This document shows, in pieces, positions 9,954 to 13,753 of a stretch of DNA of 64,000 nucleotides (position 1 is the first letter of the stretch; every line of letters begins with the position of its first letter). The DNA is taken from the UHGV virus genome UHGV-1351569. One strand, written 5' to 3'. The translations under genes and the position numbers were made by a program. The notes below the pieces were generated by a model, which saw only the letters and a program-made list of their open reading frames with translations, ran no database searches and was not told the origin of the DNA. The stretch is from a virus.

Positions 9954-10427
9954 ATGTTATTGACTGGCAAATTATATAAAGAAGAAAAACAGAAATTTTA
10001 TGATGCGCAAAACGGTAAATGCTTAATTTGCCAACGAGAACTAAATCCTGATGTTCAAGCTAATCACCTTGACCATGACCATGAATTAAATGGACCAAAA
10101 GCAGGAAAGGTACGTGGATTGCTCTGTAATCTCTGTAATGCTGCAGAAGGTCAAATGAAGCATAAATTCAATCGTTCTGGCTTAAAGGGACAAGGTGTTG
10201 ATTATCTTGAATGGCTAGAAAATTTACTTACTTATTTAAAATCCGATTACACCCAAAATAATATTCACCCTAACTTCGTTGGAGATAAATCAAAGGAATT
10301 TTCTCGTTTAGGAAAAGAGGAAATGATGGCTGAGATGCTTCAAAGAGGATTTGAATATAATGAATCTGACACTAAAACACAATTAATAGCTTCATTTAAG
10401 AAGCAGCTTAGAAAGAGTTTAAAATGA
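9954..10427 (+). CDS. 49: Recombination endonuclease VII (Holliday junction resolvase), 157 aa
   Basis: MLLTGKLYKEEKQKFYDAQNGKCLICQ...HLDHDHELNG matches recalled T4 gp49; length identical. Confidence 0.9.
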   Translation: MLLTGKLYKEEKQKFYDAQNGKCLICQRELNPDVQANHLDHDHELNGPKAGKVRGLLCNLCNAAEGQMKHKFNRSGLKGQGVDYLEWLENLLTYLKSDYTQNNIHPNFVGDKSKEFSRLGKEEMMAEMLQRGFEYNESDTKTQLIASFKKQLRKSLK

Positions 10428-13286
10428 CAATTGAAAAAGAAATTGAAGGATTGATTCATAAAACTAATAAAGACCTTTTAAACGAGAATGCTAATAAAGA
10501 TTCTCGTGTTTTTCCAACTCAACGGGACCTTATGGCTGGTATTGTGTCTAAACACATTGCCAAAAATATGGTCCCGTCTTTTATTATGAAAGCGCATGAA
10601 AGCGGAATTATCCATTTCCATGATATTGATTATTCCCCTGCTCTTCCATTTACTAATTGCTGTTTAGTAGATTTAAAAGGAATGCTTGAAAACGGATTTA
10701 AGCTCGGTAATGCACAGATTGAAACTCCTAAATCAATCGGCGTTGCTACTGCAATTATGGCACAAATTACTGCACAGGTTGCTTCCCACCAATATGGCGG
10801 AACGACTTTTGCGAATGTAGATAAAGTACTTTCTCCTTATGTTAAACGCACCTATGCAAAACATATTGAGGATGCAGAAAAATGGCAAATCGCTGATGCG
10901 TTGAATTATGCTCAATCCAAAACAGAAAAAGATGTCTATGATGCATTCCAGGCGTATGAGTTAATTTAATTCAGGCTCATGTAAAACCGGTCTAAACGGG
11001 GAACCTCTCTAGTAGACAATCCCGTGCTAAATGTTCTTTTGAACTAAATGCCTAACGACTAACCGTGATGAATGTAGCGGTGTAGAATAGAAGCTAATGC
11101 TATTCGAAACGGCCGGCATCGAAAGATGAAGATATAGTCTAATCTGCATGGCGACATGCAGCAGTCATCTTGTATAAATAAGATTATCTTATGAATACGA
11201 GGTGAAACAATGAAATGGATAAAAAGACGTTGTACTAAAATAAAAGATAAAGACGCATTTACATACTTAGTTAAGTTTTCTAATGGCGACATTTATATCG
11301 GTTATAAAAAAGTTAGAACAATTAAAAACAAGCCCACAAACTGGAAAACTTACACAACGTCATCTAAGTATATAAATGAACGCTTAAAAACTGATACACC
11401 TACTAAATGGATAATTTTAAAAACATTTGATAGTTATAAAGACGCATTAAAACATGAAGAAGAGGTCATACGTAAATATTTTTATAGCAAAAAATGTTTA
11501 AATAAATCCATAGGCGGTAAAAAGTTTTATAAGCATCCGGATACTGAAGAACATATTCAAAAATTAAGAGATGCTCATAAGGGTAAAGTGTTATCCGAAT
11601 CTCATAAAAACAATATAAAATCTTCTGTAGCTGAATATTATGCTAAAAACGGAAGATCTAAGGAACATGTGCAAAATAATATCAATAGTCGAAAAAGTAA
11701 AAAACAAGTATCGATAAAGCTTAAAAATAAAACTTTTAGAAGTTTTAAAAAAGCGGCGGAATATTTAAATTGCACTGAAAGTGAAGTCGAAACTCATCCT
11801 CTTGTTTTGAGTATTAAGACTACTATTCATAAAGTTCCTGAATATGTGGTTGTTGACGGTATTAAGTATACGTCTTATATAGAAGCAGCTAAAGCGCTAA
11901 ATTTTCATCCTAGCACTATAAAAGAACGTTGCGTATCTATGGACTATCCAAATTTTGTTGTTTCATATAAACGGGCATGAATTTGCGACTCATGCCGAAT
12001 ATAATGATGAAGTAAATACACTTTTCAGCTCTAATGGACAAACGCCTTTTGTAACAATTACGTTTGGTACGGGAACTGACTGGACTGAACGAATGATTCA
12101 GAAAGCAATTCTGAAAAATCGTATTAAAGGTCTTGGTCGCGATGGGATAACTCCTATTTTCCCTAAGCTTGTTATGTTCGTTGAAGAAGGTGTTAATCTT
12201 TATAAAGATGACCCGAACTATGATATTAAACAGCTTGCTCTAGAGTGCGCAAGCAAAAGAATGTATCCTGACATCATTTCGGCTAAGAACAATAAAGCTA
12301 TCACCGGTTCATCTATTCCTGTTTCTCCAATGGGTTGCCGCAGTTTCTTGAGCGTATGGAAAGATTCGACTGGTAATGAAATTCTTGATGGACGTAATAA
12401 TCTTGGCGTTGTAACACTGAATCTTCCTCGCATCGCGTTAGATTCTTATATTGGAACACAGTTCAATGAACAGAAATTTGCCGAATTGTTCAATGAACGA
12501 ATGGATTTATGTTTTGAAGCTTTGATGTGTAGAATTAGTTCCTTAAAAGGAGTTAAAGCGACTGTTGCTCCTATTCTTTATCAAGAAGGTGCATTCGGGG
12601 TTCGTCTTAAACCAGATGACGACATAATTGAGTTATTTAAAAACGGTAGAAGTTCAGTGTCTTTGGGATACATTGGTATTCACGAATTGAATATTCTTGT
12701 CGGTCGTGATATTGGGCAGGAAATTTTGACTAAAATGAATGCTCATCTTAAGCAGTGGACTGAAAGAACCGGTTTTGCTTTTAGTTTGTATTCTACACCT
12801 GCTGAAAACCTGTGCTATCGCTTCTGTAAACTTGATACCGAAAAATATGGAAGTGTAAAGGATGTTACTGATAAAGGCTGGTACACTAACAGTTTCCATG
12901 TTTCAGTAGAAGAAAATATCACTCCGTTTGAAAAGATTTCTCGTGAAGCGCCATATCATTTCATTGCGACAGGTGGTCACATTTCTTATGTTGAACTTCC
13001 TGATATGAAAAATAACTTAAAAGGTCTTGAGGCTGTATGGGATTATGCTGCACAACATTTAGATTATTTTGGCGTTAACATGCCAGTAGATAAATGTTTT
13101 ACGTGTGGAAGTACCCATGAAATGACTCCTACTGAAAACGGGTTTGTTTGTTCTATTTGTGGAGAAACTGATCCTAAAAAGATGAACACAATAAGAAGAA
13201 CTTGTGGTTATTTGGGAAATCCGAACGAACGTGGATTTAATCTTGGCAAAAATAAAGAAATCATGCATAGGGTTAAACACCAATGA
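10424..13286 (+). CDS. nrdD: Anaerobic ribonucleotide reductase NrdD, interrupted by a group I intron (exon 1 10424..about 10961, exon 2 about 11995..13286)
   Basis: Exon 1 (181 codons) and exon 2 (C-terminal about 430 codons) match recalled T4 NrdD; frame breaks with TAA at 10967; splice points are inferred from the recalled 1033-nt T4 intron length. Confidence 0.8.
11173..11180 (+). promoter_or_regulatory. Late promoter box TATAAATA upstream of the intron ORF
   Basis: Exact TATAAATA about 30 nt upstream of the endonuclease ATG. Confidence 0.45.
11210..11980 (+). CDS. Intron-encoded GIY-YIG homing endonuclease (I-TevII-like), 256 aa
   Basis: N-terminal YLVKFSNGDIYIGYKK (GIY...YIG motif); sits inside the nrdD intron as I-TevII does in T4. 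Confidence 0.8.
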   Translation: MKWIKRRCTKIKDKDAFTYLVKFSNGDIYIGYKKVRTIKNKPTNWKTYTTSSKYINERLKTDTPTKWIILKTFDSYKDALKHEEEVIRKYFYSKKCLNKSIGGKKFYKHPDTEEHIQKLRDAHKGKVLSESHKNNIKSSVAEYYAKNGRSKEHVQNNINSRKSKKQVSIKLKNKTFRSFKKAAEYLNCTESEVETHPLVLSIKTTIHKVPEYVVVDGIKYTSYIEAAKALNFHPSTIKERCVSMDYPNFVVSYKRA

Positions 13287-13753
13287 ATTATGATAGATTT
13301 TATCCTTGCGATTTTGTGAATGGCCCTGGATGCAGGGTCGTTCTTTTCGTTACAGGTTGTTTGCATAAATGTGAAGGGTGTTATAATAAATCAACATGGA
13401 ATGCTAGAAATGGCGTTCCATTCACTGGTGAAACACTAGAACAATTAATTGAATGTTTGAATAATGATTATATAGAAGGATTAACTATAACTGGAGGTGA
13501 CCCTCTTTATCCTGATAACCGAGATGTTATTCATTGCATTGTTCAAACAGTAAAAAATCTTTATCCGAATAAAAGCATTTGGTTGTGGACCGGATATAAG
13601 TTTGAGGATATTAAACAACTAGAAATGCTTAAATATGTTGATGTTATTATTGATGGGAAGTATGAGAAAAATCTTCCGACCAAAAAGCTGTGGCGAGGAT
13701 CAGATAATCAGCGACTTTGGTCAAATACCGATGGGGTGTGGAAACATGATTAA
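13283..13753 (+). CDS. nrdG: Anaerobic RNR activating protein NrdG (radical SAM), 156 aa
   Basis: CDFVNGPGCRVVLFVTGCLHKCEGC cysteine cluster; length and position match T4 NrdG. Confidence 0.85.
   Translation: MNYDRFYPCDFVNGPGCRVVLFVTGCLHKCEGCYNKSTWNARNGVPFTGETLEQLIECLNNDYIEGLTITGGDPLYPDNRDVIHCIVQTVKNLYPNKSIWLWTGYKFEDIKQLEMLKYVDVIIDGKYEKNLPTKKLWRGSDNQRLWSNTDGVWKHD

Follow-up and report, generated by a model that had tools for sequence, protein, structure and literature searches.

A probable self-splicing group I intron within the nrdD gene of a T4-like phage, an apparent sister of the T4 sunY intron

The nrdD gene lies in two pieces in the window, the 64-kb stretch of DNA that was analysed, and the locus raises the question of what separates them and where the interruption ends. 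A sequence-only reading had proposed a group I intron ending at G11994. Our analysis indicates that nrdD of this T4-like phage is very probably split by a 1045-nt group I intron, self-splicing and mobile, which occupies the T4 nrdD (sunY) site, has the same layout as the T4 intron and is a sister of it. The kind of element is already known, an intron in nrdD at this site being a textbook feature of T4. The parts of the gene are as follows.

10424–10961, plus strand: nrdD exon 1, open reading frame of 179 codons, ending with the U that begins the junction Tyr codon
10962–12006, plus strand: group I intron, 1045 nt, with bounds from intron-less alleles, T4 homology and the ungapped 605-aa product
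12007–13286, plus strand: nrdD exon 2, starting with the AU that completes the Tyr codon, followed by 425 codons and a stop codon

Exon 1 matches positions 1–141 of the Pfam NRDD profile (E = 1.4e-40) and is 96.5% identical to exon 1 of T4; its frame stays open past the splice site and stops within the intron, at 10969. Exon 2 matches NRDD positions 145–562 and contains the Gly_radical domain. The 5' splice site proposed earlier, after U10961, fits the P1 helix, with a U·G pair at the cleavage site. The 3' splice site was misplaced by 12 nt. When 10962–12006 is removed, the flanking sequence matches intron-less alleles from 622 phage records without gaps over 500/500 nt. Neither T4 nor any of these 622 alleles has the 12 nt that follow G11994 and run to G12006; in alignment they correspond to the final 10 nt of the T4 intron. 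In three intron-less alleles that were read directly, the junction is TATGAAT followed by ATGAAGTAAAT, and the annotated two-piece CDS of T4 needs the homologous junction. The insertion site common to both introns reads UAUGAGU/AUGAAGU, the slash marking the point of insertion. The spliced NrdD has 605 residues, is identical to T4 NrdD at 601/605 positions in an ungapped alignment and reads AYE-Y-EVNTLF across the junction. Homology with the T4 intron, the gap-free intron-less alleles and the ungapped product together place the 3' splice site after G12006 and not after G11994, and since the flanking bases differ there is no sliding ambiguity at either bound.

As judged from this structure, splicing would join U10961 to A12007, restoring the Tyr codon (U/AU) and the 605-aa NrdD. 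A Tyr codon therefore replaces the Ser codon formerly assigned to the junction, and a length of 1045 nt replaces 1033 nt, a value which is correct for the T4 intron itself but not for the present allele. The earlier 3' boundary, length and junction codon had been forced to fit the T4 length. The inspected deposited genomes that carry this lineage (45 records in all) are annotated with two separate nrdD fragments. The nrdD CDS annotation here should read join(10424..10961,12007..13286), encoding a 605-aa protein, and the matter is mostly one of correcting annotation.

The group I assignment was borne out by a covariance-model search, in which Rfam RF00028 scored 75.4 bits over 10930–11161, where the gathering threshold is 50 (E = 2.5e-17), with the model covered in full (1–253). 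The elements of the ribozyme, all on the plus strand, are listed below.

10956–11161: ribozyme core (Rfam RF00028), with the same helices in minimum-energy folds of the window and of T4
10956–10961/10975–10980: P1, exon AUGAGU with intron GCUCAU, including U10961·G10975
10987–10992/11111–11116: P3, core helix
10996–11001/11020–11025: P4, core helix
P5 and P6: core helices, given without coordinates
11033–11036/11041–11044: P6a, core helix
11057–11061/11135–11139: P7, core helix
11062–11066/11077–11081: P7.1, core helix
11085–11090/11100–11105: P7.2, core helix
11117–11120/11125–11128: P8, core helix
11144–11150/11155–11161: P9, core helix
11974–11996: 3'-terminal hairpin (P9.2-like), GGCAUGA/UCAUGCC, −10.1 kcal/mol
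12004–12006: P9.0 partner AU and terminal G12006, the AU pairing with AU 11142–11143 in J7/9 as read from the sequence

The compact P1–P9 core, from which P2 is absent, fills the first ~200 nt of the intron, with the endonuclease gene placed 3' of P9. Pairs were compared with T4 helix by helix between independently folded sequences. Of 62 pairs in this comparison of just two lineages, about 18 were changed on both sides, three on one side and none was broken; three apparent double changes in P5 were discounted as a register artefact. A six-intron MAFFT alignment misaligned P7.1, P7.2 and P8 for T4 and td, and formal covariation counting on it was dropped. The compensatory changes without broken pairs show that the ribozyme is conserved. 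Self-splicing is predicted from group I membership, as judged by the core, P1, the terminal G and compensatory change.

A short 3' domain consisting of the P9.2-like hairpin, P9.0 and G12006 closes the intron. The hairpin holds both the endonuclease stop codon and G11994, and T4 has a hairpin at the matching place with four both-sided changes. For P9.0, a concept taken from Michel et al. (1990), J7/9 of T4 carries AA and its terminal G follows UU, one pair being changed on both sides. As read from the sequence, P10 could form between 12008–12011 plus 12013–12017 and 10970–10973 plus 10964–10968, with nine of 11 positions paired.

Beyond the core lies the open reading frame with the GDIYIGY motif that had been reported previously.

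11210–11980, plus strand: gene for a 256-aa I-TevII-like homing endonuclease of the GIY-YIG type, with a NUMOD1 module

The gene is intact and full length and is predicted to encode a GIY-YIG homing enzyme. The protein is 56% identical to T4 I-TevII from end to end (256 versus 258 aa; E = 2e-100). The match to the Pfam family PF19835 (SegE_GIY-YIG) is marginal, at 25.6 bits against a cut-off of 25, but is backed by the identity to I-TevII, which is an active GIY-YIG enzyme (PMC2988022). NUMOD1 scored 25.1 bits (cut-off 22.8) and the homing endonuclease group PHROG 314 was matched at 3e-29, while NCBIfam gave no family for the protein and phmmer found no relative among PDB sequences, even at E = 10. 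The GIY-YIG identity proposed earlier thus holds at the level of the family, although GDIYIGY contains only the second motif (YIG, residues 29–31); the first is FTY here (residues 17–19), as in I-TevII. A three-way MAFFT alignment that included I-TevI misaligned the N-terminal motif, and the catalytic residues were placed by spacing only. By this means, Glu83 and Asn98 are candidate equivalents of Glu75 and Asn90 of I-TevI, with the same 15-residue spacing. Because of the N-terminal misalignment, the equivalent of the catalytic arginine was left unplaced. Relative to the common form, the present copy carries two private substitutions, F35V and I242V; residue 35 is also Phe in I-TevII.

The region just upstream of this gene carries the following elements.

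11165–11205, plus strand: hairpin hiding the ribosome binding site, with GAGG 11199–11202 paired with 11165–11175
11173–11180, plus strand: late-promoter box TATAAATA, an exact match inside the hairpin, aligning with the T4 I-TevII box
11185–11206, plus strand: homing-site-like sequence, 17/22 bases like the intron-less nrdD homing site

The exact late-promoter box noted earlier is present, and such sites are depleted rather than common, three occurring in the 64-kb window where 10.1 would be expected; mapping of the T4 promoters is summarised in PMC2988022. The hairpin has a ΔG of −17.3 kcal/mol (z = −5.2, with 0/200 shuffles as good), compared with −15.5 (z = −4.0) for its T4 homologue, and both hairpin and late box are conserved between the two introns. 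An RNA that begins at 11186 is practically without structure (−1.3), and folding predicts the hairpin solely for transcripts with an upstream start. Control of this type by hairpin and late promoter has been described for T4 (PMC2988022). By analogy, the endonuclease gene would be silent in early and middle nrdD transcripts, in which its ribosome binding site would be paired, and would be translated late from transcripts started at TATAAATA within the hairpin. The resemblance to the homing site was reached by only three of 2000 shuffles. The same resemblance in T4, where it amounts to 15/22 bases, is attributed to Loizos et al. in PMC3984707, and the sequence has been proposed as an operator (PMC2988022).

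The distribution of the element independently supports the view that it moves, or did so until recently. In six phages of Tequatrovirus and Mosigvirus the intron is 99.3–99.5% identical, whereas the exons are 93–97% identical (3–7% differing) and gene 49 is 82–97% identical. Such near identity among phages with diverged exons indicates probable recent homing of the lineage. In the proposed mechanism, which the near-identical copies support, the enzyme would cut intron-less nrdD in co-infecting phages and repair would copy the intron in. The T4 type occurs in 24 listed records, and no intermediates between it and the present lineage were found in 50,697 phage records. Of nrdD introns, only those of T4 and U5 are mentioned in the open-access papers that were found.

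The 3' end and the fact of splicing itself can each be read differently. An intron of 1033 nt (10962–11994) spliced after G11994 would create the Ser codon and an NrdD with four extra residues (SEYND for Y), a reading that we consider very improbable. It has in its favour the length of the T4 intron and some pairing: AU precedes G11994, as it does the true terminal G, so that P9.0 is possible, and the CCGAAU that follows can make five of six pairs with 10969–10974. On RNA pairing alone, these interactions leave room for occasional use of G11994. However, P10 is longer for G12006, G11994 is itself paired within the 3'-terminal hairpin, and the 12 nt that would be retained are those missing from all 622 intron-less alleles and alignable with the end of the T4 intron. 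We translated this junction (609 aa; AYE-SEYND-EVNTLF) and rejected it after comparison with T4 and the intron-less alleles; its four extra residues occur in no homologue and are exactly those left unaligned by the Pfam NRDD profile. Equally, nrdD might not be spliced at all but be expressed in pieces, as two polypeptides with a free-standing endonuclease gene between them. The two separate CDSs in the inspected records would suit such an arrangement, translation of the second piece could begin at the in-frame TTG at 11955 and a gene in pieces is known from nrdA of Aeromonas phage Aeh1. We regard this as scarcely credible here. Exactly between the two pieces stands a complete group I core, P1, P7 and a terminal G included, and precise excision restores the conserved uninterrupted sequence. 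Moreover, compensatory change keeps the ribozyme helices, which would not be selected without splicing, and the homologous T4 intron is established as self-splicing (PMC2988022).

A third possibility, which we judge unlikely though not negligible, is that the intron splices but the present copy is no longer mobile and is simply inherited, its endonuclease being inactive (through F35V or I242V, for example) or not expressed. Apart from these two private substitutions, decay of such genes has precedent. The copies in phages F1 and 236Ecol005PP are frameshifted, matching in two pieces, that of U5 matches only residues 41–256 of the present endonuclease, and decay has been reported for T-even intron endonuclease genes, T4 I-TevIII carrying a large deletion (PMC2988022). 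Against loss of mobility in the present copy, the reading frame keeps its full length, F35V and I242V are conservative changes, promoter, hairpin and ribosome binding site have all stayed intact and the lineage as a whole bears the signature of recent spread. The reading that we prefer is thus a self-splicing intron, 10962–12006, that is mobile.

The core of this intron contains a segment of td type.

10991–11061, plus strand: td-identical segment, 71/71 identical to an ORF-less td intron, covering P4, P5, P6, P6a and the 5' strand of P7

The match was found by blastn to the td intron of phage HMD-9; the same segment is 72% identical to the T4 nrdD intron. With this 71-nt stretch, the ribozyme is, to all appearances, a mosaic. 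A broader interpretation, which we offer tentatively and consider less likely than not, is that the element represents a second, uncharacterised nrdD intron lineage whose ribozyme was built in nature as paralogous phage introns exchanged domains, its P4–P6 block being identical to that of an ORF-less td intron and its P7.1–P7.2 block closest to a terminase intron of an Aeromonas phage. This lineage would be sweeping through Tequatrovirus and Mosigvirus, its endonuclease may have shifted its recognition or cleavage on the same target and core exchange between td and nrdD introns may be a route by which the td ORF is lost.

With this element, a classic model intron gains a natural sister. Covariation between the two lineages supports the secondary structure of sunY, P9.0 and the 3' hairpin included. 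They also offer two diverged endonucleases directed at a single target, and the mosaic core is field evidence for ribozyme domain exchange between introns. The current understanding of group I intron homing is unchanged.

Comparison with other named systems places the element as follows. In nrdA and mobE of Aeromonas phage Aeh1 the annotation is alike, with two reductase CDSs and an endonuclease gene between them. According to the account of Friedrich et al. given in PMC10448857, Aeh1 nrdA has no ribozyme and the two polypeptides assemble, in contrast to the present locus, which has a complete group I core and whose exons are restored exactly. The td intron (in T4 and T6 with I-TevI, and ORF-less in phages such as HMD-9) belongs to the same structural subgroup with P7.1 and P7.2, and its GIY-YIG endonuclease is under the same late-promoter and hairpin control (PMC2988022). 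The td intron of T6 shares 42 and 17 identical bases with the segment on either side of its ORF. However, td is a different host gene, its ORF lies in the P6a loop and not after P9, the P1 and P7.1–P9 regions differ and I-TevI is only 23% identical to the present protein in alignment.

The closest system is the T4 nrdD (sunY) intron with I-TevII, an enzyme that cuts 13–15 nt downstream of the insertion site. This intron shares the identical insertion site and the same order of parts, starting at the 5' end with a core that lacks P2, followed after P9 by the ORF and then by the 3' hairpin, P9.0 and a terminal G. Its late-promoter box likewise lies in a hairpin masking the ribosome binding site, a homing-site-like sequence likewise stands just upstream of the ORF and its GIY-YIG/NUMOD endonuclease is of nearly the same length (258 aa versus 256 aa here). 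The two introns differ in length (1033 versus 1045 nt), with a 9-nt insertion in the hairpin loop, and in the core, where P4–P6 are of td type here and P7.1–P7.2 are of yet another type. Over the 98% of the length that aligns they share 66% DNA identity (~73% in the core). As judged by this value and by the 56% identity of the endonucleases, the present element is a diverged sister lineage of the T4 nrdD intron and not the T4 intron itself.

In the window, which derives from a T4-like phage, nrdD lies between gene 49 (endonuclease VII, 9954-10427) and nrdG (13283-13753), an order common to T4 and to hundreds of Tequatrovirus and Mosigvirus genomes. No identical deposited record was found for 10400-13300, the best match being 97.8%. 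We note that the start of nrdG overlaps the stop of nrdD (13283-13290) and that nrdD is followed neither by a mobC endonuclease gene, as in T4, nor by segH, as in HY03. Across the 64 kb, a single Rfam family exceeded its cut-off, the group I intron (10930-11161; 75.4 bits, E 2.5e-17; gathering score 50), and its surroundings are as follows.

Features of the interrupted gene
5' of the intron: nrdD exon 1, Pfam NRDD positions 1-141
11210-11980: endonuclease ORF, 256 aa, Pfam SegE_GIY-YIG and NUMOD1, with a PHROG homing-endonuclease match
3' of the intron: nrdD exon 2, Pfam NRDD positions 145-562 and the glycyl-radical domain

The element is real and of a well-understood kind. The sequence-only reading, which had described a group I intron with a 256-aa GIY-YIG ORF between two nrdD exons, was right in kind, but one of its two boundaries, its intron length and its junction codon were mistaken. 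Its 5' splice site, after U10961, is correct: in P1, exon AUGAGU (10956-10961) pairs with intron GCUCAU (10975-10980), and the cleavage site falls at the pair U10961.G10975. Exon 1 ends (10958-10961; 447-450 in the intron-less alleles L003-L005) in GAG-U in the window and T4 and in GAA-U in the three intron-less alleles; this exon G forms a P1 pair with C10976, so the synonymous base goes with the presence of the intron.

The 3' splice site is another matter. The annotated two-piece CDS of T4 nrdD spans 2851 nt for 606 codons, and the T4 intron is therefore 1033 nt long. If a U must precede the 5' site and the intron must end in G, one placement remains, ...AUGAGU|UAACG...ACAUUG|AUGAAGU, which yields AYE-Y-EVNTLF. 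The homologous position in the window (...AUAAUG|AUGAAGU) follows G12006. With 10962-12006 removed, a 500 nt query aligns to 622 phage records across 80% or more of its length, the full-length matches listed being single pieces of identical length, and direct reading of the three intron-less alleles gives TATGAAT|ATGAAGTAAAT. Excision of 10962-12006 gives a NrdD of 605 aa which aligns gap-free with that of T4 (601/605 identical). On T4 homology, the intron-less alleles and the gap-free product together, the intron is assigned to 10962-12006 (1045 nt), with tyrosine (U|AU) as the predicted junction codon.

The earlier placement after G11994, with T4's length of 1033 nt and a serine codon at the junction, does not hold, and the comparison with intron-less alleles which had been proposed as a check contradicts it in favor of G12006. 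A junction after G11994 translates to 609 aa with SEYND replacing the tyrosine, and is ruled out by T4 and the intron-less alleles; this G sits in the 3' strand of a 3'-terminal hairpin (GGCAUGA 11974-11980 with UCAUGCC 11990-11996, -10.1 kcal/mol). RNA pairing alone is insufficient for choosing between the sites because both have P9.0 and some P10 potential: AU precedes each G and can pair with AU 11142-11143 in J7/9, and P10 could form 5/6 pairs for G11994 and 9/11 for G12006. In our view it is the genetic evidence that decides.

Folded separately to minimum energy, the core of the window intron and that of T4 gave the same helices (P1, P3, P4, P5, P6, P6a, P7.1, P7.2, P8 and P9), with P7 (GACUA 11057-11061 and UAGUC 11135-11139) placed by hand. 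Of 62 pairs compared helix by helix, P9.0 and the 3' hairpin among them, about 18 carry changes on both sides yet remain paired, three carry a change on one side only, and no pair is lost; the P5 entries reflect a register artefact and were counted as unchanged. P9.0 contributes one both-sided change, T4 having AA (J7/9) with UU before the terminal G and the window AU with AU. These counts are strong evidence that the RNA structure is under selection, including the 3' domain to G12006. They also bear on whether nrdD is simply a gene in pieces, without splicing. The six public records of this lineage that we inspected (L002, L013-L017) all list nrdD as two separate CDSs, none joined and none with an annotated intron; the usual start of the second CDS is an in-frame TTG within the endonuclease gene (equivalent to window 11955), and the SA20RB record labels the P9 hairpin as a rho-independent terminator. 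We reject the gene-in-pieces reading because a complete, conserved ribozyme is present.

Judged by its closest relatives, the intron's ribozyme is a mosaic.

Closest relatives by intron position
1-29: T4 nrdD intron (79%)
30-100 (window 10991-11061): ORF-less td intron of phage HMD-9 (L007:1501-1571), 71/71 identical
101-149 (window 11062-11110), P7.1-P7.2: group I intron of the Aeromonas phage 2L372X terminase gene (L006), 88%
150-204: nrdD introns of T4 and of Justusliebigvirus PD114 and M2929 (all 82%)

The 71 consecutive td-identical bases cover P4, P5, P6, P6a and the 5' strand of P7, and are only 72% identical to the T4 nrdD intron; T6 td keeps 42 and 17 of them on either side of its I-TevI ORF. 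The P7.1-P7.2 block, at 67% to T4 nrdD and 53% to td, is a second sign of a mosaic core. The introns of PD114 (L008) and pEC-M2929-1AR.1 (L009) are ORF-less group I introns of related core at another nrdD site, after about 289 codons, and in Vibrio phage F96 (L010) nrdD is split into several pieces, accompanied by genes for HNH endonucleases.

The exact late-promoter box reported before the endonuclease ORF is present, TATAAATA at 11173-11180. Counting both strands, the window has only three copies (11173, 37737 and 48286) against 10.1 expected from shuffles, every one of which held at least three; any one copy is thus unlikely to be mere background, and the scarcity would fit avoidance of stray late promoters. 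A hairpin (11165-11175 with 11195-11205; -17.3 kcal/mol, z -5.2) spans GAGG 11199-11202, whereas RNA starting at 11186 is unfolded (-1.3). The homologous T4 hairpin (-15.5, z -4.0) has TATAAATA at the same place, the window loop differing by a 9-nt insertion. In T4 the late promoter was mapped by primer extension and a hairpin model of late-only translation described (PMC2988022); given this conservation, the model may extend to the window. The 22 nt just 5' of the ORF start (11185-11206, TATCTTATGAATACGAGGTGAA) agree with the homing site of intron-less alleles, AAGCTTATGAAT|ATGAAGTAAA, at 17/22 positions, a likeness reached in 3/2000 shuffles, and the ORF starts 13 nt past the pseudo insertion point. 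The T4 equivalent (15/22) has been interpreted as a remnant left by an invading endonuclease gene (Loizos et al., as summarised in PMC3984707) and as a possible operator (PMC2988022).

Identity was measured region by region for six phages carrying the same intron lineage.

Identity to the window
Intron: 99.3-99.5% (ribozyme core 99.5-100%)
Exon 1: 92.8-97.0%
Exon 2: 93.0-96.9%
Gene 49 3' end (10100-10423), three Mosigvirus phages: about 82%

Exon 2 starts, in five of the six, with 100 nt of 97-98% identity, against 92-97% over the following 300 nt, as would fit co-conversion around an exon 2 cleavage site. Overall, this is how a lineage recently spread horizontally by homing would be expected to look, but it is not proof that this copy is active.

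The window intron is 66% identical to that of T4 across 98% of its length (core about 73%), and its endonuclease shares 56% identity with I-TevII end to end. A tblastn search of 50,697 phage records gave two groups, 45 records with at least 95% identity to the window endonuclease (closest, 99.2%) and 24 listed records at 55-57%, including T4, RB55, RB59, PST and U5, with nothing intermediate. F35V (11312-11314) and I242V (11933-11935) are private to the window relative to the form common to other phages; Phe35 is also found in T4 I-TevII. From these identities we regard the window intron as a sister lineage, homologous to the T4 nrdD intron but not T4's own, and by analogy the element would work like that intron with I-TevII.
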